Source: a virus
Lineage: Duplodnaviria; Caudoviricetes
IMG/VR virus record: IMGVR_UViG_3300044694_000082
Coordinates: 1 to 64,000 of that record
Strand: one strand, 5' to 3'
Length of the DNA stretch: 64,000 bases
In this document: positions 22,335-50,900 of the stretch, piece after piece
How the letters are laid out: each line of letters opens with the position of its first letter
Numbering within the stretch: position 1 is the first letter of the stretch
Program-made: the position numbers and the translations under genes
The notes under the pieces: generated by a model
Databases searched by the model: none
Told to the model about the DNA's origin: nothing
Seen by the model: the letters and a program-made list of their open reading frames with translations, nothing else

Positions 22335-22852
22335 TCAAGGTGCTCCTCTTTCAGGTGGCGTTTCACGTGGAACATCGCGCGGGACATGCGCCTTGGGTAC
22401 CTCGATCACCGAGGGTCCCGTCATCAGCCGGTCATACACGCCGTATGCCTTGGTCCAGAGCAGCCCGAGCCACGAACCGGCCCACAACGTGAACCGGTTG
22501 CGGCACATCAGACGGTCCCAGAACGTGAACTCGAAGTCGTCCTCATCGTTCACGTCGACTCCTCGGTGATGGTGACCCGATGGGTTCGTTTCACGCCGTC
22601 ATAGGTATCGGTGACCAGCAGGTCGTTGGTGTCGTGGTCGATCACCACCTCGGGGACGGGCATCTCACTGACCAGCCCCAGGATGATGCGGTGGCGCAGC
22701 TCGATGAACGCGCTCTGCTTCATCAGCAGCCGCTTGTAAGTCGACCCCGATGTTTCACGTGGAACATCCGGCGGGACGACGAGCTTCGGCAGCACGATGG
22801 CAGCCTGCGGCTTGATGAGCTGCCGGAGCCAATGTTTCACGTGGAACATCAT
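22335..22852 (-). CDS. Two hypothetical genes (22335-22553, 22550-22852), each with an in-frame parS
   Basis: GTGA/ATGA overlaps; both contain DVPRET. Confidence 0.6.
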
Positions 22853-23646
22853 GCGCCGCGGGTGGCCAGCTCGCGGGCGGCCTCCTGGTAGGCGAGCGCC
22901 GCATTGTTGGACGGCTCGTACTCGATGAGCGTCTGGCCATAGCTGGGCGCCTCGGCCGCGCGGACGGACCGGGGGATCTTGGTCTTCAGCGTCTGCTCAG
23001 GGAAGTGTGCGCGGACCTCCTCCTCGACCTGACTGGCCAGCCGAGTCGCGGCGTTGTACATGGTGAGCAGCACGGTGGAGATGCGCAGCTCCGGGTTGTA
23101 GTACTCCTGGATACCGTTGATGGTCTTCGACAGCTGACCCACGCCTTCGAGCGCGTAGTACTCGCACTGGATCGGAACCAGGATCTCGCGGCCGACGACG
23201 AGCGCGTTGACCGTGAGCAGGCCCAGGCTGGGCGGGCAGTCGAGGAAGATGTAGTCGAAGCCCATCTTGCTGTCCTCGATGGCCCGCTTCAGCCGCTGCT
23301 CACGGGCGTGCATGTTGACCATCTCGACCTCCGCACCGGCGAGGTCGAGGGAGGCCGGGACGCAGTACAGGTTCTCCGAGAACTTCGTCTCCTGAACGAC
23401 GTCGTCGAGCAGCTTGCCGTCGGTGAGCACGTCGTAGATCGAGAGCATGTCCTCGTTGTGGTGGTCGATGCCCAGGGCCGTGGACGCGTTGCCCTGGGGG
23501 TCGAGGTCGACGACCAGGACCCTACTCCCGAGCTGCGCAAGGCAGGCAGCGAGGTTCACGGTTGAGGTGGTCTTGGCGACGCCGCCCTTCTGGTTGGCGA
23601 CGACGATGATCCGCGTCTCTTCGGGAAGCGGAAGGAAGCTGGTCAT
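22849..23646 (-). CDS. parA: ParA/Soj ATPase, chromosomal (Streptomyces-like) type
   Basis: ANQKGGVAKTT, VDLDPQGNASTALG, LDLAGAE, DCPPSLGLLTVNAL, PIQCEYYALEG, IPRSVRAAEAPSYG. ATG 23646 follows AAAAGGA; flanked by parS on both sides. Confidence 0.95.
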   Translation of the reverse strand: MTSFLPLPEETRIIVVANQKGGVAKTTSTVNLAACLAQLGSRVLVVDLDPQGNASTALGIDHHNEDMLSIYDVLTDGKLLDDVVQETKFSENLYCVPASLDLAGAEVEMVNMHAREQRLKRAIEDSKMGFDYIFLDCPPSLGLLTVNALVVGREILVPIQCEYYALEGVGQLSKTINGIQEYYNPELRISTVLLTMYNAATRLASQVEEEVRAHFPEQTLKTKIPRSVRAAEAPSYGQTLIEYEPSNNAALAYQEAARELATRGA

Positions 23647-23689
23647 GCTGGTGTCCTTTTGTCGATGTGGCGATGTTTCACGTGGAACA

Positions 23690-26179
23690 TCAAGCGGGGT
23701 AGAGCGCGGCCGTCTGCTTGTCGACCGGCTCAATGCGAATGCCCTCTGGCCAGTTGGGAGGGATCGGGACGCCGGGACTGCCGTGGGCGACGTCCCTGGC
23801 CAGGTTCTCACCGAACAGATATGGTCCGTCCGTCCAGACCAGGTGCCAACAGTCGTCCTGCTCAACGGCGACCGGCCTGCCGAAGCCCCGGTGCTCCTTG
23901 TAGCCGTGGAACATCAGCTTGACCTGCTCGACGCAGGACTCGGCCTGTTCGCGGGTGATGCGATTGGTCATGTCTCTCCTCTATGTTTCACGTGGAACAT
24001 CACTCTTCGGGTTCCTTCTCTTCGGCGGGATCCTGGCCGAGGTTCTCCAGCTCCTCCAGCGCGATGGCGATGTTGCCCGCCTGGTCAGCGGCCTCGTACC
24101 ACATGGTGTCGCGGTCCTCGGCGGTGTAGCTGCGATCCTCCATGCTGTCGTCGAGATCCTGAAGGCGGTCCCTGGCCGCCTCATAAAACTCGGACAGGTG
24201 CGTCAGGTTGTCCGTGGAAGTAGGGATGAGCCCGAGGACCACGTCGATAGCGTCCAGGAGCTTGCCCTGCACGCCTTCAGGAAGGACATCCTCGGCCAGC
24301 TCTGCCGTCCTGTCGCCGAAGGAGTCGAGCAGTCCACCCAGTTCTGCGCCCTTCTCCAGCCACGGCTTCAGCAGCTCGTTCGTTTCTTCGAGATCGTCCA
24401 GGAGCACCGAGAGCTTGGTCATGTTTGCACGGCTGCGGTGGGCTTCGGCCAGCTTCCTCAGCTGATCGATTGGATAGGTCATGGCTCCAGTCCTTGACGG
24501 TGATGTTTCACGTGGAACATCAGTTGTCTTCCAGCTCGACGGTCAGACTGTTCCCGGCCAACATGTGCAAGATCAGGACGTTGTCGCCCTGGATGCGCAC
24601 CTGTCCATTGCGCTCGTGGCAGACCGTGATGTGGCCCCACTTGTTGGCGAACTTCACCATGGAGTTCTTCGGCAGCGGGGTGTCACCCAGGCGGGACGGC
24701 TGCAGGATGCGAACATTGCTGTCCCCCTCGACCTCACCCTTGAGGATGGCGACAGCTTCCTCCAGCTCCTTAATGGTGCTGCGCATGCTGGCCAGGGATA
24801 CCTGCGCCCACTGCGGGAGCTTGCTCTCCCGCGGGTCGGCGGTCTCATGGTTGGTCATGGTGCTACTCCTCTCTATGTTTCACGTGGAACATCACTCGTC
24901 GGGCTCGCACTGGTGCATGTACACCAGCTCCCGTGCGGACTTCTCACCGAACGGTTCGCTGCCGTGCAGGTTGTAGGGGAATCCTGTCTCGAACCCGCAC
25001 GGCTTGTGCTTGAGATAGGCGAGGTGCGGGAAGTAGCCGCCGCTGCTGCGCGCTTCCCAGTCAGGAGGCAGATGCATCGTCGTCTCCCGATGTTTCACGT
25101 GGAACATCACCCTCGATCCGGGAGACCGAGACCGGCGTCCAGCTCTTGACGTAGCGCACCTTGGGTGCCGCTTCGATGGCGGCCCGATGAGCACTCACGT
25201 AGTCGACGGCGTCTACCTCGACCGATGTCGTGGCGTGTCCTTGGAGATACACCTTGTATTTCATGCGTCGTCCTCCCGCGATGTTTCACGTGGAACATCG
25301 ACCGTCTCGCTGGCAAGGATCCGCTTGAGCAGTTCACTCTTGTCGATCTGACCGACCTCGTGCGCCAGCCCCTGGGCATCCTTCTCCAGAAGCCGGGCCA
25401 TGGCATCGTCGCTGGGCGATGTTTCACGTGGAACATCCGTGACCACCGAACCGCCGTCCGGCACGATGCCGCCACTGAAGTTGCCGAAGGTCAACCTGTC
25501 GTTGGGCATCGCAGCCCGGAGTTTGTCCTCGACCTGGGCCCGCGCGTCGGACCAGTTCTCGGCCTCGACCGTGCGCTGAGCAGTACGGGCCGCACCGCCG
25601 TTGACGCGGTAGACGACGTCGACCTGGAAGAGCGATGTTTCACGTGGAACATCCGTCATCCCGCTGCCCACGAGGTGGTTCCAAAACTGTTCGGGGTTGT
25701 CGTGGTCGCCGCCGTACGACGCCCACGCCTCCCTGATCGTCTCCTGCAGCATGGCGACCTGCGAGAGCGGCATGTCGTCGGGCGTCTTGATGGAGAAGAG
25801 GCCGCGGTGGTCCGGCCAGAGTTGCTGGGTCATCGGTCCTCCTGTCGATGTTTCACGTGGAACGTCGGTGGCTGTCGAACTTCCGCTCGGCAGCCAGCTC
25901 CTGTTCGTACTTGGTCAGCGCACGGGCGTAGGAATCCAGGCGCTGGGCGGCCATGCGATTGGTGAGCTGACTGCGCCCCTTCCACACGCCGTCGGGGCGG
26001 CAGAAGGCGTCCTTCGGTGCGCCCTCCTCGTGGAACTCGGCGCAGGCCTTGATGATGTAGTCCGCCCGCATGCCGCCATCCACCAGGTAGGCAACGAGGT
26101 AGCGGTAGCCGAAGTTGTGCGCCGGGCTGGGCACGTGCTGATCGGGGGTTCCGTAGGGCGGGTTGAACTTGGCCATCAC
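23690..26179 (-). CDS. parS-separated small hypothetical genes: 23690-23971, 24000-24482, 24520-24858, 24892-25077, 25061-25264, 25261-25833, 25853-26179
   Basis: Each has its own RBS just after a parS site and ends at or in the next one. Confidence 0.75.
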
Positions 26180-26904
26180 TCCTCCGTCGATGTTTCACGT
26201 GGAACATAGAAGGTGGCCCGCACGGTCTGCAGCCAATCCTCGACCTTCTCGGTGTCGGGCTTCTCGGGCAGCACACACGGGGCGTTGTCGAAGACGTACT
26301 CATACTTGCCGAGGAGTTCCTTGGCATGGGCGATGTTCCCCATGGCGACCATGGAGCCGAACGACATCACGATGTCCGGGTGCTGGAGCCGGATCGACAG
26401 TCTGCCAGTCCTCCACAGTTCGAGGCCCTGGATCAGCAGCCGGTTCATGTGGCGAGCATGCTTGGCCGTCCGCTTGGCGAGGTCCGGCCCGAAGGTGCCG
26501 TCGGCTCGCGACTCCAGCTTCTTGAACTGCTGGGTGGCGTAGCCGAGGTAGGCGTTGCGGACGTAAGCCGCCGACAGGAATGCCTCCCTGATGCCGATCA
26601 GTGCTTCACCGAGCGGCGTGGTGGTCTCGTACTCGTCGAGCCAGAGCAGCTCCATGACGGTCGGATTGCACTTGAGGGCCAGCTGGCAGTACTTGCGGGC
26701 CTCATGCATGGTGATGTCGGGGTTGGTCTCGACGATCGACTCTTGTGGATTGGCCAACCCGAGGAAGGCTTCCGTGCGGGCGGCGAACACGCCGAGCCGG
26801 TCGATGTCGGAACCCGGGCGTGCGAGTCCGTACGCGGTGGATCCCACCACGCCGGACAGGAGGATCTTCACTGTGCTGTCTGATGTTTCACGTGGAACAT
26901 TCAC
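26176..26904 (-). CDS. YcgL-like nucleotidyltransferase (DNA pol beta superfamily)
   Basis: VVGSTAYGLARPGSDIDRLGVF (GS..DxD), KCNPTVMELLW, AYLGYA, KHARHMNRLL. Confidence 0.88.
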   Translation of the reverse strand: MNVPRETSDSTVKILLSGVVGSTAYGLARPGSDIDRLGVFAARTEAFLGLANPQESIVETNPDITMHEARKYCQLALKCNPTVMELLWLDEYETTTPLGEALIGIREAFLSAAYVRNAYLGYATQQFKKLESRADGTFGPDLAKRTAKHARHMNRLLIQGLELWRTGRLSIRLQHPDIVMSFGSMVAMGNIAHAKELLGKYEYVFDNAPCVLPEKPDTEKVEDWLQTVRATFYVPRETSTEE

Positions 26905-29024
26905 TGTCCGGCCTCGACGAGTTCGACCTCGGTGGCCCGCGGGAAGCAGACCTCAGTCTCGTTCCGGCAGGGGCTGCCGTCCATCCAGTCGAGCTGAAGC
27001 CGTCCGTCACCCGCCCAGGACCACTCACGGATAACGGCCTCACGGCCCTTGAAGGAGCCATCCTCCAAGATGCGGATGCGATCGCCGGGCACCAGGCCGC
27101 GGTGCATACGCAACTGCTCGAACTGGGACACGTCCGCGTTGTAGCTGGCTGCAGCCCTGGTGATTTCACTCTGGTGCGCCTCGACGGCCTGCGCTTCGAG
27201 CAGCGTGTCGTAGGCTTCGGCAGTCAGGCGGGCCGCCTGCACGAGGCGGTCCTTCTGGACGGCGCTCAGTGGAGTCTTCACTTCTCTCCTTGATCGGTGG
27301 ATGTTTCACGTGGAACATCGGGCAGGCCGCGCCGCAAGATGTCGAGGAATAGGGAGATGCCCTCCGTGCTGTACAGGTTGATGGTGGCGTTGAGGCCGTC
27401 CTCGTCGTTCCAGACGCGGGATCGCACGCTGACCTCGTTGTCCTTGTTCAGATCCCTGAGGCGGCGCAGCAGTTCCTCGGCATCCGGGGCGACCTTGTTC
27501 AGAGCCTCACTCATCCGCCGCTTTTCGGTTTTACGCTTCTCTGCCTTGGCCGCGTCTTCCTTGCGCTTGGCGTCGAGCAAATCCATGACCAACTCGCCGT
27601 AACGGTCACGCGTGGTGTACAGGTAGCGCACCCCGCTACGCCAGACGTTGTCATGGCCCTTCGAGCGGACATGCGTGACGTAGCCGTAGTTCTCCCTCGC
27701 GTATTCGTAGGGCCGGTGGTACTGGAAGTACACGGAGAACAGGGAGGTCTGGAACTCCTTGATAGGGAGGTGGACGTAGCCGTTCGCGCTGACCTCGACC
27801 CTGGCCAGACGCTCGTCTTCGAGGAGCTTTTCCATCCGGGACCGAACGGCATTCGACGTGCTCTTGAAGCTGCGGAAGCCCTGCGTGAGGAGATACTCCC
27901 ACTCGAAGACGGGATGGCGGTTGTCATCGGTGACCTTCTCGGCGATCAGTTCGTCGAGGAAGGCGTAGAGACGTTCCGGTGTGGGTGCAGGCATATCAGT
28001 TCTCCTTGGTTTCACGTGGAACATCGGCCGGATGGAAGAACTCGTCCCACATCCGGCGTTCCTCGTCGGTCATCTCGGTGTTGGGCCTCCGCTGCAGGAA
28101 CACCAGGTGGCCGCAGACTCCGCCCGTGACGCTGTAGGTGTAGCCCGGCACGCACTCCATGATCATGACGTCCTCGGTCTCATCGCAGTCGTCGGCCGGG
28201 CACTTCGGCCACGGCTTCCAGGCATCGATCGAATCACTCATCGCTCGGCTCCGATGTTTCACGTGGAACATTGAGCGCCTCGCGTGCGGCGGCCACGTTG
28301 TACGCATCGATGAACGGCTGCGCTTTGGACGTCATGTGCGTGTCAGTGAAGCGCTGAAAGGCGACGCCGTCCGTGCCAACCCAGTACAGGACACCGTCGT
28401 ACACGCCAGGCTCCTCGACGCCGTAAGCGATCTCGCGGTCAGCCATCGCCCGGCTCCAATGTTTCACGTGGAACATCACGGAGCCCCGCCTGCTGCTCAT
28501 CGAAGAGGCGCTGGGCAATGGCGCTCTCCCGCGTGAAGGTACGCCAGGCCGTCGTGTCGGCCGGTGTCTTGTACTCCCGCATGCGGGTCTCGAAGTATCT
28601 GAGCGCCAGCGCGATGTCCTCCTCGGACAGGCGCACCTTCCACCTGTTGCCCTTCTGGCGCTCGGCCTTGTGGAGGGCGGCGACCAGGGAGCAGATCTCG
28701 GGGCTGTATCGGTCGGGCTGGTCGGTGGATCGGAGCAGTCTCTGGAACTGCCCATCGGTCAGGAAAAGCTCTTCATCCATGGGTCTCCTTGGTGGGGATG
28801 TTTCACGTGGAACCCTCACTGCGTCCGCAGCGAGGGCAGGGGAGTTTTACGAGGTCGAGGCAGACAACGCAGTTGACCTGCGGATCGCCTTCGCCTTCCT
28901 CTACGTCGGTCAGGTCGGCGCCGCAAACGGCGGTGTCCGGGATGCAGCACCAGTAGTGCCCCAGCTCGTCACCGTCATCGGTGCTGGTTTCCTGGGGCGC
29001 AGGGGCGGGTGCCAAGGTGGTCAT
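26901..29024 (-). CDS. parS-separated hypothetical genes: 26901-27281, 27278-27994, 27996-28241, 28234-28446, 28439-28780, 28803-29024
   Basis: RBS and overlaps; several end in VPRET tails. Confidence 0.72.
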
Positions 29025-29126
29025 TGGCCGCTCCTTCCTTGTCAATGTTTCACGTGGAACATCGGGCTGGTCGTCGGTCGAGGGGAGCCCACCCCCGCGG
29101 GGATGGGCTCGGGTCACGACCGGCGG

Positions 29127-29456
29127 TCAGCTCCTCTTGCGCCGCACGATCGTGCCGGTGGTGTCGCCCTCGCGGATCATCGTGCGCAGCCGGGTCGCCG
29201 CGCGGAAGCGGATCCCGCGCACGGGTGCCACGTCGATCAGCTCGCCAGTCTGGAGGTTCCGGCCCTTCTTGGCGCCGCGCATGCTGGTCTCGAAGATGCC
29301 GAAGTTGGGGACGGTGAGCGCGCCTTCCGCAGCGAGCAGCTTGGCTAGCTCGTCGAAGGCGGCGGTCAGGATCTCCTGACTGGTGTTGACGTCGGTGTTG
29401 GTCCTGACAGCCACGGTCTTCGCGAGGTCGTTGAGGGTGGTCTTGTCCTGAGCCAT
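29127..29456 (-). CDS. hup: HU/IHF-family histone-like DNA-binding protein
   Basis: LTVPNFGIFETSMRGAKKGRNLQTGELIDVAPVRGIRFRAA. Confidence 0.9.
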   Translation of the reverse strand: MAQDKTTLNDLAKTVAVRTNTDVNTSQEILTAAFDELAKLLAAEGALTVPNFGIFETSMRGAKKGRNLQTGELIDVAPVRGIRFRAATRLRTMIREGDTTGTIVRRKRS

Positions 29457-29678
29457 GTGGCTTCCTTGTCTATGAGTGTCGATGTTTCACGTGGAACATT
29501 GGTGTAGCACCCGGCTACGACAATGCCGTCAGGGCGCCGAGGATGATCGCCGCAACTACCACAGCGGCGGCCACGATCAGCACTGCTATGTCGACGGCGA
29601 CGGACCGGGTGGTCTTGATCTTGGGTCGGAGATGCGGGTCGTAGGGCATCGTGGCCCTTCCTTGTCGGGTACTGCAGG

Positions 29679-30418
29679 TCAGTGCTTGCGTTTCCTTCGG
29701 GCACGGCGCTTGCGGGCCGTGACCTCGACGATGCGCCGGGTCCGGTGGCAGGTCTGCCTCCAGTCGATGATCCGCCGGAACTCGGCGTAGACGTCGTCGA
29801 CCATCGGCTGGGTGCGGCGGACGTACTCGCCGGGGGTCATCCAGTCGCCGGTCACGTGTCCGTCTTCTCCGGGTTTCGCAGGTGGGGCGGGAGCGGTTCG
29901 TAGTGGTGCCAGGCGCCCCACCATGCCTGGCGGAGGAACATCCAGAGCCGCTTCATGAGGAGGGTTCCGTCTGTTCTACGATCCGCAGCTCGCTCGGGCC
30001 GACGCGGAAATCGTCGAAGTTGGTGGGCCTGCCGACCCAGACCCACGCGAGGCGGTCGCCCTTGCGGCGGGGTAGGTAACGCACCTCTTGATCGAAGTGG
30101 ATCATGTAGATCTTCGCGCCCCGCTTCTGTGCCTGCAGCAACTCACGTGTCGTTGGCATGAGGGAGGCTCCTTTCTCGCTTGGTCTCACCCCAGGCAATG
30201 AACGCCCGGCCGATCTCGATGGCCTTGGCAGGGGTGAACACCTGTTCTTTCTTGCCAGGGTCCACGGTGATCGCGTGCCTGCCGAACGAGAGGATGGTCC
30301 CCGCATGACTGGTCGTGAACTCGACCTCGACCGTCTCGCCCTCTTCGATCAGCTCGACGATCTCATCGGCGGTGAGGCGTCCGTTGCGGTCGGGCATCAG
30401 AGGTTCTCCTTCCTTCAT
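29679..30418 (-). CDS. Small hypothetical genes (about 29679-29840, 29953-30159, 30143-30418)
   Basis: Short coupled ORFs; starts uncertain. Confidence 0.5.
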
Positions 30419-30729
30419 ACGTGGTTGCCTTCCCAGGCTTCCTGGCGGGCGACGGCCATGCCGTCGGAGGTGAGCTGGAAGTACCGGCGCATGGGCCGCC
30501 GCTTGCGCAGCTCAACCGGGTCTTCGTAGCGGTCGGCGAGCCATCCGGCACGCGTGAGGCGGTCGAGGATGGGGCCGACGGTGCCGGGCGGGAGGCCGGT
30601 TCTGATGCCGACCTCCCGCAGGTACATCTCGCCGTCGCCCTCGCGTTCTTCCTTCAAGAACAAGCCCAGCACAAGGCGGACTTGCAGCGTCATCTTGGGC
30701 ACTGGCTGCATGCGTGGATCGTACTCCAT
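30415..30729 (-). CDS. PadR-family winged-helix regulator
   Basis: MYLREVGIRTGLPPGTVGPILDRLTRAGWL...RRYFQLTSDG. Confidence 0.85.
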   Translation of the reverse strand: MEYDPRMQPVPKMTLQVRLVLGLFLKEEREGDGEMYLREVGIRTGLPPGTVGPILDRLTRAGWLADRYEDPVELRKRRPMRRYFQLTSDGMAVARQEAWEGNHV

Positions 30730-30751
30730 GCCGTCCGAGTTCGGACAACGT

Positions 30752-31189: not shown

Positions 31190-31261
31190 GAGACCTTCCT
31201 TGTCTGGCGCGCTAACCGTGTTAGGCTGGCGCCGGTGTCACTTTCTTTGTCGAGTAATGCG

Positions 31262-31295
31262 AAAGCCCCCGGGGTCCATGACCTCGGGGGCTTTT
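31262..31295. terminator. Bidirectional intrinsic terminator
   Basis: AAAGCCCCCGGGGTC-cat-GACCTCGGGGGCTTTT. Confidence 0.8.
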
Positions 31296-31312
31296 GTCTG
31301 CGCGGGCGGGTG

Positions 31313-31582: not shown

Positions 31583-31624
31583 GTCACCCTTCCTTGTCGG
31601 CGGTGCGATGTTTCACGTGGAACG

Positions 31625-32392
31625 TCAGGGCCAGAGGGTGGGCAGCCGAGGGATGACGGTGGACAGCCAGCCGTCCGGCTCGGCGACGAAGTGCGGTGCG
31701 TCGTAGACCTGCCAGTTAGCGAGGGCCGCCTCGTCGAGGTTGGACAGGCCGGTCGGGTCCTTCGGCCACTGGCCCGGGTACGCGACGACCCGGCCGCGCT
31801 TGAGTCCGGGGTCGAGGTCGTTCCAGTTGATGCCGTGGTTGTCGAAGAGCATCTCCTGGATCTGGTCGGTGGTCTTCCTGTGGAGCTGGGCCTGGGTGAA
31901 GTAGTGCTGGCCGAGCATCTGGATGGAGTTGCGGACGGCGTCACGCTGGCGCCAGACGAAGTAGTTCGCCACTTCCACTGGGTCGGTCATGGACCACACC
32001 CGGCAGTCGAACTGCGGTTGCAGGTTGGGGTCCATGCGCAGCCGGTCCAGCACCACCGAGGCGTAGGCCGCGGAGATCGAGGTGATCTTGTCGATCCGGC
32101 CGCCGAACCACAGCTCGGAGCTGAGGGTGTCGAAGTCGGTGAGGAGCAGAGAGATCTCGTCGGACTGGGTGTAGGCGAACCGTGCACCCTGGATCTCGCG
32201 GCACAGGGCCTCGGCGACGACGTCCATCTGCCTGACGAAGCCTCGATCGAAGGGCTTCTCAGTGTCCTTGAGGTAGGTGTGGAAGGCCCGGCCGTCCAGA
32301 CGCAGCAGCGTGTAGGAACGGCGGGGAACCTTGCGCTCGTAGGTCCGCTCATAGACCTTCATCCGGTTGCCGAGCGGGGTGTTGTCGCTCAT
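31625..32392 (-). CDS. tRNA(His) guanylyltransferase Thg1-like protein (3'-5' nucleotidyltransferase)
   Basis: RMKVYE, LRLDGRAFHTY, YTQSDEISL, FDCRV, YFVWRQRDAVRNS, GINWN. Confidence 0.93.
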   Translation of the reverse strand: MSDNTPLGNRMKVYERTYERKVPRRSYTLLRLDGRAFHTYLKDTEKPFDRGFVRQMDVVAEALCREIQGARFAYTQSDEISLLLTDFDTLSSELWFGGRIDKITSISAAYASVVLDRLRMDPNLQPQFDCRVWSMTDPVEVANYFVWRQRDAVRNSIQMLGQHYFTQAQLHRKTTDQIQEMLFDNHGINWNDLDPGLKRGRVVAYPGQWPKDPTGLSNLDEAALANWQVYDAPHFVAEPDGWLSTVIPRLPTLWP

Positions 32393-34220
32393 GGTCTCCT
32401 CTCTGTGTTTCACGTGGAACATCGCGGCCGATGTGTCGGCGGACAGCTTCGACGGCGGCCACCGCTTCTTCGTGCATCCACTTCTCGTAGGCCTCGCGCT
32501 CCATCACGACGGCGGGCTTGCCGCAGGACTTGACGTTGCGCCCGGCGGCGTGCTTCCACGTGCCCTTGGCGCCCCAGAGGTGGACGGCGCAGCCGCACCG
32601 CTGGCAGACGTAGTGACTCTGGCTGGTGGCCATGGTGTCTCCTTCACTCGTTGTCGACGATGCGATGCCAGCGCTCGATCAGCCGGTCGTTGTGTGGACC
32701 CGTGTCGGGATGCGTAGCCGACAGACGGCCCTCGATCTTGCCCATGGACAGGATCACGTCGAGCTTGCCACGGATCTCCGTCTCGCCGATGCGATCGATG
32801 GTGTGCTCAGGAATCAGCACGAGGATCGCGTCGTACAGTTCGGCGGTCCTCAGGACTCGTTGCACCTGGTTGCTGTAGTCCCCGTTCATGGCTTCCTCTC
32901 GTAGCCATCGCCACGGAGATCGGCCTTGGCGATCTTCTCGCTGGCGATGTCGATGGCGGGCATCAGGGTGTCGGCGCAGAGGTCGCCGTAGAAGTGCGGG
33001 TTGACGTCGCGTCCCAGGTACAGGCACCAGCCCGCGTCCAGGATCTTCACCAGCCGGTAGGTGAGGCCGAAGATCTCGGTCTCCCATACGCCGGAGCGGA
33101 CGGACATGGGCACGTACCCGCGCCGGAAGGTCCAGCCGAATCCGTTGTCGGCTTCGATGTACCGCTCTCCCATGTGCGTCTTGCGCTGGGCCATCACTTC
33201 TCCTTGGCCGTTGTTTCACGTGGAACATCGAGCGTGAGGGCGAGGGCGACGGCCTCCCTCTTGCTGGGCCGTGTCCTCCACGGTTCATTCGGGCTGTTGT
33301 AGGGGCGGGCGCCCCAGCGCCGGTAGTAGCTATTGTTGGGTAGATGCTTCACGGTAGCGGTGTACGTGGTGCTGCCGGTGGGCTTGATGTGGTAGGTGGC
33401 CTCTTCGGTTTCGTCGGGGTCGATCGTGTAGTCATCTCTCTTCGGCAACCGGTACATGGCAGCCTTCCTTGTCGGGTGTTTCACGTGGAACATCGGGTGG
33501 ATCATCTCGGTCAAGGGGGATGCCCCTGCCGCACCGCCACAGGGGCAGGGGCATCCGGCTTGAGGTGACGATCAGGACGGCGGGTCCTCCTCGTCGCGGC
33601 CCATCAGCCACGAGTGGAACAGCAGCCCGAGCAGCATCATGACCGCGGCGAACATCCACGCGTGATCGAGGAGACCGAGGATGACGTCCTCGGCCGTGGG
33701 CTTGACGGTGAAGGTGAACTCGCCGGACATGTCACGTCTGGCCCGGCTTGTTGAAGACCCACACGTCGTCGCTGACGTTGACGTCGCCGACGACCCAGAT
33801 CTTGGAGCCGTCCATGACGGACTGCTCGACCTGCTTCTTGCCGTGCTCGTTCAGCCAGTGCCAGCCGACCGGTCCGCAGTTCTCGTCGAGGTACTCCTCC
33901 AGCGGTTCAAGGGAGCTGGGGTAGTAGATCTCGAACTTCGCGGCCATGTCCTTGACCTGGCGGGGCGTGAGGAACGTGCCGCCGTGGAACTGCTGGGCGG
34001 CCTTCAGCGTGGCCAGGACGCCATCCTCGGCGTCGGCCCTCGACCAGGTCTCGGCCTGCCGGTAGACGTGGCGCAGGGCGTTGGCTGCGGCCCTGGCCTC
34101 CTGGTTCTTCTTGTAGACCGCGTCGTCGATGTCCTCCTCCTCCCACGGCGAGCCGCTCAGGGCGCGAAAGAGGACCAGCCAGACGGCGGGGACGGAGAAG
34201 CGGATGTCGTCGGTGCTCAT
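32349..34220 (-). CDS. Hypothetical genes: 32349-32633, 32644-32889, 32886-33197, 33194-33457, 33732-34220
   Basis: RBS/overlap pattern; parS at several junctions. Confidence 0.65.
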
Positions 34221-34264
34221 GAAGCTACCTTCCTTGTCAGCGGGGATTGTTTCACGTGGAACGC

Positions 34265-34714
34265 TCAGACATCGGCGTTCGGGAAGTACGTCTGGCCGGT
34301 CTCATAGGCGATGATCAGGTTGTCGACGCCGCCGTAGCGAGGAGTGGGCAGTGCGTCGATCGGGAACCATTGCCAGCCGCCGCACTTGTCCGGCTCCATG
34401 AGTTCCGGCGTACCGTTCCTGTAGCGGCTGATCACGCCGATGTCGATGTAGTGCTTGGGCAGGTAGTTCCTGAGGTTGGTGAAACACAGGACGCGGGGGC
34501 GTGTGGTGCGGAAGTACGGGCCGCACTCCTCGGCCAGTTCGCGCAGCGCGCCCTCCTCGGGGCTCTCGCCGTTTTCCATGTGGCCGCCGGGTGTGCCCCA
34601 CTCGCCGGGGCCGAGGGATCCACGGCGCATACCGAGGAGAACTCTGATGTCGTCACCAGACTCGTCGATGATCAGGTGGCTGATGCCCACCATGGGACGG
34701 GGGTTGTCGGTCAT
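34265..34714 (-). CDS. NUDIX hydrolase (MutT/NUDT15-like)
   Basis: PGGHMENGESPEEGALRELAEECG Nudix box; MEPDKCGGWQWF. Confidence 0.92.
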   Translation of the reverse strand: MTDNPRPMVGISHLIIDESGDDIRVLLGMRRGSLGPGEWGTPGGHMENGESPEEGALRELAEECGPYFRTTRPRVLCFTNLRNYLPKHYIDIGVISRYRNGTPELMEPDKCGGWQWFPIDALPTPRYGGVDNLIIAYETGQTYFPNADV

Positions 34715-34723
34715 GATGTCCTT

Positions 34724-38764: not shown

Positions 38765-39192
38765 GACTCTTCCTTGTCTGTCGTGCGTGGAAGCAGTCTG
38801 CTCACTCCATCGTCATGGCGTCCAGCCACTGGGCGGCTGGCATCCCGTCGAGGTACCAGTCGCCATCGCCGGTACCGGTGAAGTCCTCCAGTTCCAGGTC
38901 GAGTTCGTGCTTGGCAGCCTCGGCGATGAACTGCTCGCGGGTGGTGAGGTGGGCGTAGGGGCGCTTCGGACAGCCCTGCATCCGCGCGAAGGCCCCGTAG
39001 GTGTTGGTCGCTCCACAGTCGGTGCATCTCCAGAGGGTGAGGGCCATGCCCCGCTGCCCCTCCTTCATGCCGGTGTCCTCGCAGCGGTGGCCGCAAATGT
39101 TGGTAGTCATGGTGTCCTTTCCTCGTGACTCCGGAGGGGCCACCGTGCGAGACGGTGACCCGTGCTGGCGCCACGATGTTTCACGTGGAACA

Positions 39193-39633: not shown

Positions 39634-39672
39634 AGGTAATTCTCCTTGTCGTTGTTTCACGTGGAACATGGG

Positions 39673-42600: not shown

Positions 42601-45600
42601 TCATTACCGAACCGGCGGGCGGCCATGACCGGGACGTCCATGCGGATCAGGATGTCTCCGGCTGCGTCGCCCGCGTGCTGGATCTCGGTGACCTCTTCGC
42701 GCAGGACCACGGCCTTGCCGTAGGCGGCCGGGGCGATGGGCGGGTGGATGACGGACAGGACGTAGCTCATCGCAGCTCCTCGATGTCGTCGGGGTGTTGG
42801 TACTGCTGGATCTCCATGGCCTTCCTGTAGTTGCGAGCCGCGGCCAGCGAGAAGCCAGCCGACGCGATGGACATGACCAGGGACAGGAGAGAGATGATCA
42901 GGGCGACGGTGTCGTTCATCGGGTGGCCTCCAGCTCGGCGAGGCGGGCGGTGATGAGCCGCTTCCAGGCGTCGGTGAGGGGGGCGAATACCTCCGTACGC
43001 TCGGCGTCGTTCAGTCGGTGCGCGAAGACGCCGATCTCCTTGGTTCCGAGGGTGAATCCGTGGGCCATCCTGTCGTCGTCCACGTCCAGGCCGAGTTGGT
43101 CCATGGCGCCCATGTAGGCGCCGTCACCGTCCGAGTGGCAGACGATCTGAGCGGCGACGCAGAACTGGGTGTCGGAAACGTCGAGGGCGCGGAGGTCGAC
43201 GTCCAGCTCCCAGCCGGGGTAGCGGGCGTCGAGGATGCGGGCGCCCTTCAGGACGCGGGCGTCGAGTTCGGTGTCGGTGGGGAACATGGTGTCTTCCTTG
43301 TCGTAGTTGGTCCCGTAAGCCGAAGGGGCCGGACACAGTGTGCCCAGCCTGTTCGGTCGGCGGGTCAGTCTTTGGTGGGCCAGAGGCAGGCCACGATCAC
43401 CACGATGGCGGTGATCACGGCGATGGCTGCGACGCCCAGGAGTACGGCACCGATCCCGAGACCGATGCCGCATCCTTCTGGGTCGTACTTCCGCATGTCC
43501 GAGGGGCACCAGAAGTTCCAGTACCAGTCGGGGATGCTCACGTGATCTCCGCGATCGTGACCCGATAGCGGCGGGTGTCGTTGCTGCCGTACGGGTCAGC
43601 CGTGACCACATCGATGGCCAGCGGCTCACCCGGGACCGGCGGGACCAGGTCGAAGTGCTTGACCAGCCGGGTCTCCAGGTCACCGTTGAGCAGACCGGTC
43701 ATGGCCGTGTAGATCGCGTAGCGCAGCTCGGCGTCGTTCATCCGGGGTACTCCCCGAGCCTCGTGTCCCAGGCGTCGCCGGGCAGACGGGCCAGCCACTT
43801 GGCGATGACCATCTGGGCGAACTCGTGCGGGATGCCTTCGGCATCGGTGCCCTCGGTCTTCTCCGTCCAGAACTCCAGCAGGGTTCCGGCCTCTTGAAGG
43901 AGGCGTTCGGCGACCTGTCGGCGCATCTGGGCGGCACTGACGCGTGCCGAGGGGGTGGGCGTGTCCATGGTGTCCTTTCGGTCGGCGGGGCTTACGCGCC
44001 CGTGAACTTCAGGTCGATGCTGGCGTCGACCTCACCGTTGCCGAAGACCCCGCCCCGGGCGTTCCCGGCGATGTAGGTCTTGGCGTCGTTCTTGATGTTC
44101 TCGCGGCCTTCGACGCCGAAGGCGGTCGTCCACTGGGACGGGTTGTGCAGGGTGACGGTCAGCTGGACGGTGAAGCTCATCGGGCGGTTGGGATCGCGGG
44201 CCATCGGGGTGGCTCCTTTCAGTCGGCGGCGAGTGCGGCCTTGGCGGTGCGGTGGGTGACCAGCTCGATGACCCACGCCTCGTAGAGGTTGGCGTAGTTG
44301 CCGTCGTGGTCGTCGTTTTCCTCGGCGAGGGTGACCGCGAAACCGTACTCGGCGGAGACGTCGTCGTTCGGGGGAATACCGAGCCGTTGCTGGCCCCGGC
44401 TGTACGAGCCACCACCGATGGCCTGTGCCGACGCGCAACGGGTGGTGCTGTACAGGTCGAGGGTGTCGAGGTCGATCCGGTCGGTGGCGCCCTGCTCGTA
44501 CTCCTCGATCTTGGTGATGCCCTTGCGGACGCGGGGGCGGAACTCTTCGATGGTCGTCGGCATGGTGAACCTTCCTTGTCGGGTGGTGCAGGTGTCAGGC
44601 GGTCTTGGCGGGGCAGGTGTCGGGGCATTCGGTGTGATCGCCGCTGTCATGCAGCCTGATCGCCTTCTCGAACCAGGCCAGCTGGCGCTGTTGTTCGAGC
44701 ATGCGCGGACCGGGACGCCCGATCAGGACCACGGCGCAGTCACGGTCGAATCGCGGTTCATACAGGCGCCCGTCGGCGGCAGGAGTGGCCCGAGTCTTGG
44801 AGACCACATCAACCCCGATCACCGGGTAGCCGGTGGGGCCGTTGACGCCGTCGGTGCGGATCTCGACATAACCGATCCTGCGCGGCAGCTTGATCTTGAT
44901 GACCGCCTCGTCGTCGTGCATGAGCACCGTGCGGTGCTCGCTGGGGTTGAGTTCGGTCATGGGGTGCTCTCCTTGTCGAGGTGGTCGGCAAGCGCACGCA
45001 GGGCGTACTGAATGCCGGGACGGGTGCCCAGGCGGATGATCTCGGAGGGTGAGCCGTCCTTGTTCCGGACGGCGAAGCCGTTGGCGGGCAGACCCATCGC
45101 GCCACCGATCATCATGCCGCTGTCGCGAAGCTCGATCAGGTGGTCTTCAACGGCCAGGTGTACGGCCTGCATGAGGTCGGGGTCGTCGGCGATCTGACGC
45201 AGGAGGGCGGCGGCGTTGTCGGGCAGCTTGGGCGTGGTCATCAGATGCCCTCCCTGATCGTGTGGTCGGTGAGGGTGGCGTCGAGGCGGGCGATGAACTG
45301 ACCCGGCACCGGAAAGACGGTGGCGACCAGATCACCGATCACGGTTCCTTCGGGCTTGCTGTAGAAGCGGGTGATGCCGTCATCGCTGAGGACCATGTAG
45401 TCGGCGGCGATGTAGGCGACCGGGTCGTCCGCGTAGCGCTCGATGCGGAAGACGTGGGCGGGCTCGTGGTTGTCGCTCACAGCTTGGGCTCCTTCGTGGC
45501 GAGGCGTTCGCCGTTGAACTTCTTGTACGGCTGGTCGTCGCCGTCGCAGTGGATGTAGTACCAGCCGTCGAAGTACTGGCCGCCGGGTGCCATGATCCCT

Positions 45601-47516
45601 TCGTCCATGAACTGTGTCGGTTCAACGACGCCCCACCTGCGGTCGTAGTCCAGCACCCGCAGGCTGGGGGTGATGAGGGCGCGGTCGGAGGTATGGTGGG
45701 CCTCCAGGATGCGGAAGTCGTAGCCGGAGGGGTGGCCCCAGACCGTGCCGACGGGGCGGCGGCCGAGGGCGTCACCGAACAGGCGGGCGTTCCTCGACCC
45801 AGCCACACCGGACCCGATCAGGGAGCCTTTGGCGGCCAGGGCGGCGTGTTCGACGCTGGAGTAGGCGGTGTCTCCGTAGGCGGTGATCTTGCCCAGCGGG
45901 CTGCGACGGATAAGCAGGAGCCCTGGCATGATCACGCCTCCTCGGTGCGGACGGGGACGAACCAGGCCGGGGAGGGCTGCCCGGCGTTCGGGAACCCCGG
46001 GTCGTAGACGGCGGCGTCCTCGACGCGGATCACGCCGTTGGATTCCAGCGCGACGACGGAACCGCGAGCTACGGCCTTCTCGATTTCGTAGGCGACCCCG
46101 GCGGCGTTGTCTTGGCAGATGCGCCGGGACCAGCCGAGGCCGTAGCCGCCCGCCCACTTGGTGTACCAGACGCCGGGGACGGGGGTGGGGATGGATGCGG
46201 TGGTCATGGTGTCGACCTTCCTTGTCGGTGTAGCGTGGTGGCGTCTACGTATCAAAGCCCGGCACGGCGGCAACCGTGCCGGGTTTCGTGTTTCACGTGG
46301 AACATCGGGCCTACTCGGGGGCCGACTCCCGCTGCTGCTCCAGCTGGTAGGCAGCCTCGCGCTCGATGGCCTCGCGGTCCGGCTCCGGCTCGCTGCGGCA
46401 GTCGTGCTCGTTCATGAGCGTGATCAGCGTGCCGATGTTGTCGTCGGGCTCGATGCGGGTGATGACCGTGCCGCAGTGCTCGTGTACCAGGTCGTGATCG
46501 GTCTGCATGTCGTCGTCGCTACGGCGGACGACGAAGCCGTACGGGTCGTTGATCTCCATCAGCTCTCCTCCCTGGTGCCAGTCAGGAAGACGACGCCCGG
46601 ATGGTGTGGCTGGCCGTCCTCGACGGTGTACGAGTAGCCGTCGGCGGCCGGGTCCTGGTAGGTGATGTCAGACATCACGTCGACACGTACGCGTGGGGCT
46701 CCGTCCTCGCGACGGGATTCGGTGTCGATCTCCACGACGCCGATGCCGTCGGGGAGGATGACGCGGAGGCTGCCGCGTCTCATGCGGTACTGGCGATAGT
46801 CGTTGGTCATCAGGCGACCTCGGCCTTGGCGTACTCGTCGTACGCGTCCATGAGCAGGTGGCGGAGCTGGGCGTGCGCGTCGCGGGCGGCGTTGTAGGCG
46901 GCCTCGGTCTCGTCGTAGTCCAGCTTGCCGCTGACCTCGAACCTTTCGGTGATCCACTCCCGCAGGGTGGGCATCTCCTCATACCGGGCGGCGTTCATGA
47001 GGAGTTCGCCGAGGACGCCGGACAACTCAGGGTTCACGTGACGGCCCCCGTTGCTCCGGCGGGACTCGGCCACGGCTCCACCGATGCCCCGGAAGTAGGC
47101 GGTGCGGCGGGTGCTGCCGTCCGTCACCCACTTCTGCGGCTCCTCGGTGGAGCGGATCAAGACCAGGTCCCACACCTCGTACTCGCTGTACGGGCCGGTC
47201 GAGACTTCGTGCGTCCAGAACCAGCGGGCGCGGATGCCGTCGCGGTTGATCAGGTCGGTAAGGGTGGTCATGGTGGTGTCCTTTCGGTGTCGGGCGGCGG
47301 AGTCAGCGGTCCAGCTTCTTGGAGCGCACGCGGTGCCGTGCATCCGGGGATGCGATGGTGTACTCCCTGCACAACCAGTACGCGTAGTCGCGGCCGGTCA
47401 GGGAGTCGTCCGGGCCACCCGTGTCGGTGGGTTCGACCTCGTCCAGCTCCTCCCACTCCGAGCCGGGGCCGGTGGTGTACTTGCCTTCGATGACCCAACC
47501 GTTGACGGTGCTCATG
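39673..47516 (-). CDS. Run of hypothetical genes including 39673-40002, 40011-40286, 40995-42062, 42065-42364, 42366-42770, 42916-43287, 43738-43968, 44219-44563, 44595-44960, 44957-45241, 45241-45480, 45477-45929, 46311-46559, 46559-46810, 46810-47271
   Basis: Coupled ORFs with RBSs; several mutually similar pairs (see findings). Confidence 0.65.
46255..46286. terminator. Intrinsic terminator-like hairpin next to a parS site
   Basis: AAAGCCCGGCACGG-cggcaa-CCGTGCCGGGTTT. Confidence 0.7.
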
Positions 47517-47548
47517 ATGGTGTCCTCTCGATGTTTCACGTGGAACAT

Positions 47549-47896
47549 TCAGCGGGCGGGCGGTGTGTAATCGGGGTCGCGGCGGATCTTGTTGTTGACG
47601 ATCCGGGAGACCGTCCCCTTGTCCAGTCCGAACTCCTCCGCGATGGCGGCCAGCGAGACACGGCCGGTCGCGTACTGCGCGCGGATGACCCGGGCCTCCT
47701 TCAGCAGTTGAGCACGCGTGGGTGCGGGCGGGAGATAGTCCGGGTCCGGCCAGGTCTGGCCACGGATGATCGCCGAGATGGTGGCGTGGTGGACGCCGTA
47801 CGTCTCGGCGAGCTGCGGCATGGTCGTGCGGCCTGCCGCGTACAGGGCGCGGATGGTGCGCACCTGCACCCAGGTCAGTACAGGGGCGCCGGGCAT
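47549..47896 (-). CDS. Tandem double-HTH DNA-binding protein
   Basis: Two repeats: TMPQLAETYGVHHATISAIIRG and SLAAIAEEFGLDKGTVSRIVNN. Flanked by parS on both sides. Confidence 0.8.
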   Translation of the reverse strand: MPGAPVLTWVQVRTIRALYAAGRTTMPQLAETYGVHHATISAIIRGQTWPDPDYLPPAPTRAQLLKEARVIRAQYATGRVSLAAIAEEFGLDKGTVSRIVNNKIRRDPDYTPPAR

Positions 47897-47930
47897 GGGG
47901 TCTCCTTGTCGGATGTTTCACGTGGAACGG

Positions 47931-50900
47931 TCAGGGGCGGTTGAGGCCGCGCGTGTCCTCGAAGATGTCGGTCACGGCGCCGGTCTGGTGGTGGGTCGTC
48001 CACCACACCTCCAGCCACCGGTTGGACGGGGTGCCGTCCGCTGCCTGGGCGTAGAAGCCACGGTGGTGGAGCGCCGATCGCCTGCCGAGGCAGCTGTAGG
48101 CGCTCATGTGCTGCTCGTCCACCTCGAAGGCGTGGGCGAACCCGTCCTCAGAGGAACGCTGGGTGATGCCGGTGTGCTTGGCCATGATGATTACTCCTTG
48201 TAATGAGGGGCCGTCTCGGTCAAGGGCACGCCCCGCCGCGGATGGTCGGCGAGGCGTGCGGCTTGAGGTGACGGACAGGTCAGTCAAACAGATCGGTCAC
48301 CAGGGCGCGGGCTGCATCGAGGCACCGCCCGCAGCTCGGGCCCCGGAAAACCCGCAGCCGTCGGCAGTACCGGCAGCGGATGTGCCAGTGGCGCCACCAG
48401 GTGCAGCGGTTACGGGCGCATGGCTTGCAGAAGCCGTAGCCCATCAGTCGTGCTGGCCGATGATGAGGCGCTCGGACAGGGTCAGCGTGACGTTCTCCCC
48501 ATACGCGCGTTCGATGCGGCGCCGGTGCTCGTCGCACAGGGGCGACGGCCCGTCGCTGGGCTCCCCGCTGACATAGGCAACGTGCACGTAGTGCGTGGCG
48601 TAGGAGTGGCACCAGTCGCCCTCCGCGCAGGCGACGCGGGTGAAGTACTCGGTGTGGAAGAGGTGACGGACCGCGCCGTCTTCCTTCACGATCATGGTGA
48701 AGGCACACCGCTGGCCGTCCGGGTTGACGTCGCGCCAGGTGTAGACCTTGTACCCGAAAAAGGCGGCGTTGCTGACATCGGTCTCACGCTGCAACGGGGT
48801 GCGCACACCCTTGTCAGGGGCGCGGTGGCCCATGTGGGCGTAGTCGACCACGGTCTCGGAGTTGTCGCGGACCTCGGTGGGGATCTCAACGGTGATGGTG
48901 TCGGTCATGGTGGTGTCCTCTCGTTGCCGTAAACCGAAGTGGGCAGACACATCGTGCCTGCCCTGCCACGGTCGGCGGCGGCTACTCGTAATGGTCGGGG
49001 CGATCGGCGTGGTTGTTATAGGGGATGGGGTCGCCGGGGGCGTGAATGTACATGCTGTACGCCACGTCACCGCCCCGGCCGAAGTTCACGGAGTGCAGGG
49101 GGCGGCCACGGTCGGCGTACTCGCCCGCCTCCAGCTCAAGGGCCAGCGCCGTTGCGGCGGCGTCCGTGTCGGCGGTGGCCACGGCGACCAGCTCACGGAA
49201 CGTGAACCACCGGCCGCCTTCCTCCGGGCCGAGGTACTCCATTCCCAACCTGTAGACGGCGACCGTCCAGCTGTCGGCGGTGCAGTGATCATCCTTGGGT
49301 GCGTCGAACTTGATCAACGGCATGGTGTCTTCCTTGTCGGGTGGGCCCGTGGTGGCCCGGGGTGGTGCCCTGCTCTTCCACGGGCCGGGACTAGCGGGGA
49401 GGGTTGACGGCGGTCAGTATCACGGCGGTCACGACCACACCCCACGCGAGGTAGGTCATGAGCCATCGGGCGTCGGATCTCCAAGGGCGGTGGCGCATGC
49501 TCTTCCTTGTCGGGTGGGGCGGGCGTTCACGGGGTGTCTCCCGGCATCCAGCTTTCAAGCGCGTGCACTTCGGTGATCGAGTCCAGGAAATGGTGCTGCA
49601 TGACCACCGTCAAGGTGGCGTACAGGCAGACCAGGTCTCCGATCTTCTGACTCACCACCCAGCGCTCACGCTTGTCCTCCACCCAGCGAAGCCGGTGCCA
49701 GCCGCGCGGGAGCGGCCCGGTGGGTCCGGGCACGGGGTTGGTCATGACTGTTTGTCCTCCAGGAAGGCGGCGAACTGCTCACGGGCTTCGGTCTCGGCGT
49801 AGTCGTAGCCGATCAGCCCCCAGCACGAGCCGTCGTTAACCTCGACCCAACTGGTGTGCTCGTCGGGAAGGGTGACGTCGTCGCCGGGGTCGACGGGCTG
49901 CCAGGTCACGGCTTTTTCGATCACGTAGCCGTAGACCTCACCCCGTGCCCAGGCCATGTACTCGTCGATCTCGCCCCGGATGGCGGCCACGGGGTCGGGG
50001 ACCTGTGCGATGCCGTCGGGCATCAGGTACCAGAGGGCTTCGGCGCCGTCGTGCGGGGCGTGGTATTCGACCACGGCACCGTGGAAGATGCGCGCCCAGC
50101 GGGTGAAGATCTCGACGGCGTCCGGGTGCCCCATGATCCGCTCCCAGCCGTCCTCCAGCGGGCCGCCATCCCGGTCCACGTCGATGTACTGGTGAGTGGG
50201 CAGCGTGATCACGTGGGTCAGTTGATCGAACTCCGTGCGCGGGTTGGACGGTTCCGGGTCCGGCATGAGGCGGACGCGGTAACGCCCGTCGTCGCTGGTC
50301 TCGATGGTGTCGGTCATGGCGATGTCTCCCGTGTCAGTCGGTGATCAGGTGTAGGTTCCGATGATCTGGAACCGGCCGCCCGCTTGTGTCACTTCGGTGC
50401 GGCGCGCTTCAACGCACGCCGCACACAGGGGTTTGATCACCCCTTGGTGTGCTCGACGGGGACCTTGCCGCCACCCCATCTGTACGCGGGCCACTGCGGG
50501 CGGCGGGTCGCTGTAGTGCGCAGAGTCGGCCAGCCAGCCGCACGGCGGGGGGTTCTCGGAAGGGGGCATGGTGATGTCCTTTCACGATGCGGGGCACGGA
50601 CGGCCACCGGGATGAGCGGTGGGCGCCCGTGACGGCACCGGGTCAGTGGCCGCGAGGCGGGTGGAAGCGATAGGTCTTGGACAGGCGCGGGATGCCCGGG
50701 GTGCTGCGGCTGGTGATGGCCGTGCCGACGCGGTACAGGTGCACGGTGTCACCCTCGGTCACCATCTCGTCGGACCAGGTCAGCCGGACGGTGGGGAAGC
50801 GGCGCCCCTGTGAGGCCAGCGGCTGGAGAGGCTTGATCACGATGCCGGTGTCCGTGACCTCGGTGACGCGGGAGCCGTCGCGGCTGTCGCTGATGTAGTC

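Follow-up and report, generated by a model that had tools for sequence, protein, structure and literature searches.

The window analysed here is the left 64 kb (64,000 nucleotides) of the complete-rated, single-contig IMG/VR virus record IMGVR_UViG_3300044694_000082, a phage genome of 104,344 bp and 65% GC referred to as G000. A codon-bias gene model places about 170 genes on the minus strand between 0.8 and 73 kb, and the plus strand carries the structural genes from 75 kb onward. Within the leftward genes, one 14-mer is present in 32 exact copies between 22195 and 47928, all of them on the plus strand in a count over the whole genome, while every gene in the block that holds them is on the minus strand. 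The copies flank a gene encoding an orphan ParA ATPase of 265 amino acids (aa; 22849–23646, minus strand), and by its sequence the repeat is a genuine chromosomal-type parS.

The repeat matches the universal parS consensus

Read on the coding (minus) strand, the conserved unit is a near-palindrome of 18–20 bp, palindromic except for one base pair. Its 16-bp word matches the universal chromosomal parS consensus TGTTNCACGTGAAACA, taken from PMC7022226, at 16/16 positions in 27 of the 32 copies, and all 32 share the same 14 central bases. The asymmetric base of the phage word falls at the variable position of the consensus, and many ParB binding studies have employed the identical 16-mer, the spo0J parS of B. 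subtilis. Together with a related phage, G001, 55 copies carry the 14 bases unchanged. In contrast to a chance expectation of 0.35 for the 14-mer with up to two mismatches, the 104,344-bp genome holds no reverse-strand copy, no perfect-palindrome copy and no variant with one or two mismatches.

The sites are confined to 22.2–47.9 kb of the leftward genes, with 22 of the 32 in the 7.3 kb adjoining parA and none in the rightward structural genes. The flanks beyond the 18–20-bp unit are unconserved, the ribosome-binding region excepted, and on this ground a CRISPR-like array or a miniature inverted-repeat transposable element was rejected. A phage RNA polymerase promoter was also rejected, as the palindromic word is unfit for one and no such polymerase gene appeared in the part of the proteome scanned.

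Sites occupy gene junctions ahead of ribosome-binding sites

The initial annotation of this DNA had described the repeats as markers of gene boundaries and had named 15 stop codons at or next to a site. All 15 are correct in the codon-bias gene calls; they account for 15 of the 32 sites, three others (22195, 22360 and 22752) lying outside the range then covered. Sites are given below by the ends of the 14-mer, all read on the minus strand, with the distance to the next start codon in that direction. Seven genes end in a TGA that abuts the site and whose GA opens the palindrome. These junctions are 22834–22847, behind the stop of parA itself (22849); 23675–23688 (stop 23690), with the parA start 28 nt on; 23985–23998 (stop 24000; start 13 nt on); 24505–24518 (stop 24520; 22 nt); 24877–24890 (stop 24892; 18 nt, start of a DUF7239 gene); 31610–31623, behind a Thg1-like gene (stop 31625; 27 nt); and 39178–39191 (stop 39193), where a conserved stem-loop comes next and the start is 67 nt on. 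Six further stops, which had been placed close by, measure 2–7 nt before the 14-mer. Four are TGA codons 2 nt away, at 26885–26898 (stop 26901; GTG start 13 nt on), 34249–34262 (stop 34265, of a NUDIX gene; start 28 nt on, with equal spacing at the G001 ortholog), 47533–47546 (stop 47549; 17 nt) and 47915–47928 (stop 47931; 18 nt), the last being the first site in transcription order. The other two are a TAA 5 nt before 39654–39667 (stop 39673; GTG start 20 nt on) and a TAG 7 nt before 46290–46303 (stop 46311), which is followed by a terminator-like hairpin and by a start 82 nt on. Finally, the internal TGA of a site serves two genes as stop codon: 25853–26176 at site 25850–25863 (next start 16 nt on) and 28803–29024 at site 28800–28813 (19 nt).

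Among the remaining 17 sites, 13 are translated within the last codons of the upstream open reading frame (ORF), always in one frame (c), which gives DVPRET. Such read-through ORFs stop 3–20 codons past the site, in or just after the ribosome-binding region of the next gene, and over both phages the second open frame is used for read-through in 0 of 19–20 cases. The site at 22360–22373 is translated as the 3' end of its upstream ORF, with a TTG start 21 nt on, and that at 22752–22765, downstream of parA, lies inside or ahead of an ORF of 57–100 aa. Read-through also occurs at 25092–25105, at the end of the upstream ORF (next start 14 nt on), 26192–26205, at the end of the RlaP-type nucleotidyltransferase gene (15 nt), 27303–27316 (21 nt), 28009–28022, 28256–28269 and 28461–28474 (14 nt each), 32407–32420, in the ORF 32349–32633 (14 nt, start of the Thg1-like gene), and 33213–33226 (18 nt). 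Three more translated sites fall within a single 190-aa ORF (25261–25833, minus strand), in which they join three modules: 25637–25650 links modules 1 and 2 in frame and has no start codon after it, 25421–25434 links modules 2 and 3 in frame, and 25283–25296 (frame c) is the third linker, with the next start 18 nt on. This leaves 22195–22208, the last site in transcription order, which has the stop of a 39-aa ORF 10 nt upstream and no start within 30 nt; 29047–29060, within a 102-nt gap, with a stop 66 nt upstream and the next start 22 nt on; 29484–29497, 17 nt after a TAG stop (start 27 nt on); and 33478–33491, after an 80-nt conserved spacer (start 20 nt on).

The relation to starts is a stronger rule than that to stops. 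The order is site, Shine-Dalgarno sequence and start codon. In 26 of the 32 cases a called start follows 13–28 nt after the end of the site, which 4.6% of positions would satisfy at random (P about 1e-29). In the dense block of 22 sites in 7.3 kb, neighbouring sites mostly enclose exactly one gene start, and the same mostly holds across 22–34 kb. Not every junction is occupied: twelve with a spacer of at least 25 nt have no adjacent site, and runs of tightly overlapping genes (for instance 34.7–38.4 kb) have zero sites. The junction pattern is confirmed, and chance falls far short of explaining it.

An extended ribosome-binding motif, CCGACAAGGAAGG, and its close variants occur about 28 times ahead of genes on the coding strand genome-wide, for example at window positions 6849, 10764, 14888, 29656, 33463, 44570, 46216 and 52829. 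The motif is found within and beyond the block of sites, and the parS word stands immediately 5' of it. Simple scans for sigma-70 promoters and terminators found nothing associated with the sites. The GC-rich, terminator-like hairpin at 46245–46289, directly after site 46290, is among the few plausible transcript ends within the block.

ParA resembles Streptomycetaceae proteins and no ParB was detected

The phage ParA matches AAA_31 at 1e-60 and CbiA at 5e-27, and is 64–67% identical to chromosomal ParA of Streptomycetaceae, without their N-terminal extension. The closest phage-type homologs, 66–73% identical, are P0004 (on 61 kb), P0007, P0012 and P0013; ParA-based scans of IMG/VR and of metagenomes returned distant or generic ParAs only. 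The similarity of ParA, taken by itself, suggests an actinobacterial, Streptomycetaceae-like host. The likely host clade probably uses ParAB chiefly during sporulation, to fill spores.

In a six-frame search of the G000 genome we found no ParB_N (PF02195), HTH_ParB (PF17762) or KorB (PF08535) domain, and G001 gave no significant ParB_N match. Likewise, no gene adjoining parA is conserved in both phages on the G000/G001 map, and no repressor was identified among the proteins scanned. Since a host-derived ParA has been kept and no ParB was found, host ParB dimers most likely load at the sites. In Streptomyces, ParT is a ParB-like protein without the CTPase domain (PMC12260392), so a missing N-domain is by itself insufficient to exclude a phage ParB-like protein. 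One could imagine that an unrecognised, phage-encoded dimeric DNA-binding protein docks at the sites, as proposed for the 17-bp repeats of Cluster O mycobacteriophages, and that the likeness to parS is convergence or mimicry. The invariance of all copies, stricter than the mixture of variants and perfect palindromes in two sampled actinomycete clusters, and the many block genes without known function would suit such a binder. We nevertheless judge it improbable, given the 16/16 match to the universal consensus, the lack of a conserved gene partner beside parA in the two phages and the failure to detect a ParB-type helix-turn-helix domain.

The arrangement is shared with one other phage

G001, an IMG/VR phage of 116.6 kb, is the sole relative found; a primase profile search matched it alone, and a megablast with 12 kb found no close relative of G000 among GenBank phages and plasmids. 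The two genomes are about 70–76% identical at the nucleotide level in helicase, primase and parA and have little else in common. G001 carries 23 exact copies of the 14-mer, 23/23 in the same orientation, and 17 of them lie 12–33 nt from a start (P about 5e-17). The grammar is that of G000: stops overlap the arm or lie just upstream, and read-through takes place in the DVPRET frame only. Three additional G001 copies have one mismatch, one of them being a perfect palindrome. Two one-mismatch copies, at L147 1844–1857 and 4640–4653 (G001 101844 and 104640), lie in an otherwise site-free 10 kb between two site blocks; they look like decaying sites, one of them 12 nt before a start.

A side observation concerns the stem-loop next to site 39178. 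Between this site and the start of gene 38802–39110, a GC-rich stem of 9 bp with a 7-nt loop (39120–39177, minus strand) has a counterpart in G001 (L147 about 8645–8702), within a block of about 78 nt that is 90% identical, while the downstream proteins are 26% identical. As we read the alignment, the three differing stem positions keep their pairing.

Outside this pair the word is usually found in small numbers. The complete 40-kb phage IMGVR_UViG_3300044846_004757 (G002) carries this parS variant five times within 220 bp (6778–6996), always in one orientation; it shows no match to the ParA of the window and no ParB N-domain, and is another candidate user of host ParAB. Matches resembling parS occur in 325 of 50,697 GenBank phage records, at 567 places in total, and none of the best 40 of these 325, phi29 relatives included, has more than four. 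Among the bacterial matches listed, from genomes of many phyla, the word forms tight, often co-oriented, non-coding centromere clusters; most copies are intergenic, those within genes are 52 sense and 91 antisense by crude ORF calls, and a two-site pattern search retrieved no host or prophage relative. In two sampled actinomycete chromosomes the parS clusters contain this variant alongside perfect palindromes. Over a sample of 61 Actinomycetes, a whole genome has 0–5 copies of the 14-mer, the maximum of five being in a public genome, and the unpublished genomes G011, G019 and G028 have one copy each.

Orientation weakens the predicted RNA hairpin

As the initial annotation had argued, avoidance of stop codons cannot explain the shared orientation, since the orientation on the coding strand has a TGA in one frame and the opposite one has none in any frame. 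RNA folding offers another angle. In the observed orientation the mRNA hairpin contains a C.A mismatch and has a mean minimum free energy of -3.5 kcal/mol in G000 and -2.7 in G001, whereas the opposite orientation would contain a G.U pair in a 9-bp stem at means of -7.7 and -8.0 kcal/mol, respectively; a perfect palindrome folds at about -10 kcal/mol. The flanking positions show no covariation, pairing being no commoner there than independent base frequencies predict. The proposal that the repeats form a functional RNA hairpin is thus disfavoured: the orientation used is the one with the weaker hairpin in mRNA, and a weak sense hairpin without covariation in its flanks makes a selected hairpin unlikely. 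If anything, the 55:0 bias looks like a choice that avoids stable structure ahead of ribosome-binding sites.

More broadly, the word could act in RNA as a hairpin or as a protein- or RNA-binding motif 5' of the Shine-Dalgarno sequence, serving processing, protection from exonucleases or translational control. The fixed distance of 13–28 nt to the start codon and the strict strand polarity would fit such an element, as would a stop-adjacent position that resembles repetitive extragenic palindromic (REP) elements; the start-associated sequences of Cluster K would be another parallel. Yet, apart from the poor folding and flanks just described, two mid-ORF sites have no start codon after them, and the exact match to a DNA–protein consensus next to parA would have to be coincidence, so that we consider an RNA element very improbable.

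Orientation also bears on the possibility that host ParB, or a phage protein, spreads from the 32 sites and represses or blocks transcription of the early block while the phage is a prophage or in a carrier state, in the manner of the Cluster A stoperators named by the initial annotation or of the KorB-OB regulon. All sites face the same way relative to transcription and occupy short junctions along a single long leftward operon, a tyrosine recombinase gene suggests a temperate lifestyle, and ParB-family proteins can silence genes (KorB and P. aeruginosa ParB, reviewed in PMC7022226). However, a dimer on a near-palindrome gives no reason to expect polarity, and the rightward structural genes are free of sites, which prevents the orientation rule from being set against the direction of transcription; neither a phage repressor nor a ParB-family protein was found. 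We regard such a roadblock as unlikely.

Homology between the two phages ends at sites

The initial annotation had also proposed that the repeats are recombination handles which make single genes exchangeable, with a Rad52-like annealase encoded nearby, and had suggested comparing gene content and breakpoints with related genomes. The annealase is there: a Rad52/Rad22-family single-strand annealing protein is encoded at 16060–16641 on the minus strand (24 bits, cut-off 20.3). In the comparison with G001, 6/6 nucleotide homology blocks that contain a site end 1–7 nt past it in both genomes; four of these ends are upstream of the site and two downstream. One of the ends lies 7 nt past site 28256, and at site 33478 the homology with G001 ends 1 nt from the downstream edge. 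In one alignment, the site marks the exact point at which identity climbs from background level to about 90%. Gene content between sites is largely different and reordered; mosaic insertions and deletions occur without sites as well.

Stronger evidence comes from within proteins. Module 1 of the ORF 25261–25833 is a separate 53-aa gene in G001, and module 2 is fused there, by way of an in-frame site, to a module which in G000 makes up the C-terminal portion of the ORF 22550–22852; in-frame sites thus connect three modules (1, 2 and A) differently in G000 and G001. The fusions are probably real, as in G000 the site preceding module 2 has no start codon after it. The small proteins in which the translated site reads as a DVPRETS linker are encoded at 25261–25833 and 22550–22852 of the window, and at L146 9602–10093 and 7514–7675.

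These observations could mean that the sites have been selected as recombination linkers, which make genes and protein modules exchangeable at identical junction words of 18–30 bp. The agent would be the Rad52-like annealase or, less likely, the tyrosine recombinase acting on the short inverted arms around the asymmetric centre. Such linkers would account for homology blocks that stop at sites, for the jump in identity, for modules recombined through in-frame sites and for the presence of mostly one gene between consecutive sites; both an annealase and a recombinase are encoded, and a single read-through frame means that any site-to-site crossover preserves the frame. On the other hand, mosaic joints in phages fall at gene borders anyway, where the sites sit, and local alignments are pulled to include a perfect 20-mer. 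A three-gene insertion or deletion separates shared genes where no sites exist, and the junctions of parA carry sites in G000 and none in G001. Moreover, unequal exchange has left no tandem paralogs and neighbouring cassettes contain no paralogs, the recombinase is a generic PF00589 protein without a match to integron integrases, and an exact host parS beside a host-like parA would be left unexplained. Crossover at the sites is plausible and partly supported by the block ends and in-frame modules; that selection worked on the sites as linkers seems unlikely to us.

A double use, in which loading sites for host ParB have also been standardised as in-frame recombination linkers that shuffle genes and modules through the annealase, is rather unlikely in our estimate. 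It would have the appeal that a crossover between any two copies yields a working junction, be it a stop-overlapped arm, an internal TGA or a DVPRET linker. If true, the old "linker" model of modular phage evolution would gain an explicit example defined by sequence.

An array that may load host ParB

We favour, at about even chances, a reading in which the array loads host ParB and is threaded through the tolerated slots of a packed early operon, with recombination as a by-product. Host ParB dimers would load at the phage parS copies. Once loaded, the ParB clamps may act with the phage ParA to position or segregate the phage DNA, the outcome being carriage into spores, as for phi29, or a plasmid-like carriage; host ParB might be titrated as a side effect. 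The array would be threaded through tightly packed small genes transcribed as long operons, which may explain the junction grammar. Each copy would occupy the sole slot that tolerates a fixed word of 18–20 bp, between the end of an ORF and the next Shine-Dalgarno sequence. Space would be saved in two ways: either the stop codon shares bases with the left arm or is the internal TGA; or the ORF reads through as a hydrophilic DVPRET tail and stops in the next ribosome-binding region. The shared orientation would put a C.A mismatch rather than a G.U pair into the mRNA, and the mismatch would halve the stability of the hairpin just ahead of each ribosome-binding site. Together with the shared ribosome-binding motif, the copies would form identical direct repeats at gene borders, and for this reason also crossover points when related phages recombine, a by-product that could explain the cassette-like gene content. 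The fallback of the initial annotation, namely that the junctions are merely tolerated positions, fits best once the repeats are taken as a DNA-binding array, although it needs an added constraint from RNA structure on orientation.

Several points weigh against host ParB loading. The host is a putative one, suggested by ParA similarity. Partition is served elsewhere by one to five sites, with five in 220 bp in G002 and five in phi29, so that 32 copies and their one-per-gene spacing are not explained by partition alone. Because ParB binding is symmetric, the 55:0 orientation bias needs the extra RNA argument, and since non-coding bacterial centromeres can be co-oriented as well, the shared orientation could simply reflect copying history. 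The slot model accounts loosely for the second open frame, which is never read through. The tyrosine recombinase at 72211–73119 means that the phage may integrate, which makes a partition role less obvious, and a very divergent phage-encoded binder may exist, for which Streptomyces ParT offers a comparison (PMC12260392).

If host ParB does load here, this would be the largest known phage hijack of a chromosomal centromere system: the phage carries six times more copies of the word than the richest of the 61 sampled actinomycete genomes. It would extend the idea of spore entrapment from phi29 to actinomycetes. The array may also be seen as a natural experiment in fitting a fixed DNA word into a packed operon, by stop overlap, read-through tail and an orientation set by RNA folding, as well as in the coexistence of ParB clamps with transcription and in whether dispersed identical junction words steer phage mosaicism. 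The copy number of 32, the single orientation and the single read-through frame are the puzzles that sustain this interest.

Other genes of the phage

To the left of the array the minus strand encodes a family A DNA polymerase (3388–5175), a superfamily 1 helicase (17093–18517) and a D5-type primase (18535–21426). RlaP-type nucleotidyltransferase, Thg1-like and NUDIX genes (26176–26871, 31625–32392 and 34265–34714, respectively) are interspersed among the parS copies, and domain scans left most genes of the block without known function. The tyrosine recombinase gene lies outside the window, on the minus strand at genome positions 72211–73119 (L434 1471–2379), where the leftward and rightward gene blocks meet. 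The protein is divergent, with a generic PF00589 match (32 bits) and weak Xer-like NCBIfam matches; in the same NCBIfam/PF00589 scan, integron-integrase models gave no match. The phage may be temperate, or the recombinase may serve dimer resolution.

Comparison with known systems

G000 shares with chromosomal ParABS the parS word and a Walker-type ParA, but no ParB was detected on the same replicon. The phi29-family Bacillus phages come close in another respect: like G000, they have no parB of their own and bear several copies of the host-consensus parS. In phi29 there are five host-type sites, and host Spo0J carries the phage genome into the prespore, according to the account in PMC2731898, which cites Meijer et al. 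2005. The G000 array is six times larger, with 32 sites that are strictly co-oriented and keep a fixed place ahead of ribosome-binding sites, and the genome encodes a host-derived ParA, which phi29 lacks. A comparable entrapment in the case of G000 would be a prediction.

The KorB-OB regulon of the IncP plasmid RK2, with its ParA partner IncC, resembles G000 in pairing a ParA with dispersed sites, at least a dozen of them, that serve a ParB-family clamp, and it couples partition with gene control. KorB, however, is encoded by the plasmid itself, while no ParB-family gene was found in G000 and the sites are not at recognisable promoters.

The stoperators of Cluster A mycobacteriophages, bound by L5 gp71-type repressors (PMC9283540), are likewise two to three dozen identical short sites at short junctions, oriented with transcription; the orientation rule holds for 32/32 sites in G000 and for 23/23 exact copies in G001. 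Stoperators, however, have a truly asymmetric sequence, bind a phage repressor that is monomeric and follow the local direction of transcription in both genome arms, whereas the G000 site is a parS, palindromic but for one base pair, and is restricted to one 26-kb block.

An array of co-oriented, imperfect palindromes directly after stops, with single genes between them (in G000 across 22–34 kb), is also a property of integron attC arrays and REP elements. The attC architecture is a longer imperfect palindrome with paired core sites. Unlike integrons and REP elements, G000 has no IntI-type integrase, attC architecture or REP-associated tyrosine transposase, and its palindrome of 18–20 bp is identical in all copies.

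Cluster O mycobacteriophages have more than 30 invariant 17-bp dyad repeats of unknown function, many of them at junctions (PMC4351075); these follow no orientation rule and have no link to starts, and the G000 word has both. The start-associated sequences of Cluster K are closely linked to translation initiation sites, as contrasted in PMC4351075 (see PMC3203893); the G000 word ends 13–28 nt before the start, with a separate Shine-Dalgarno sequence in between. Searches of the literature brought up no phage described as having host parS sites by the dozen at its gene junctions. Altogether, the case belongs with two known kinds, a parS hijack of the phi29 type and the dispersed junction repeats of actinophages of Clusters A, K and O.

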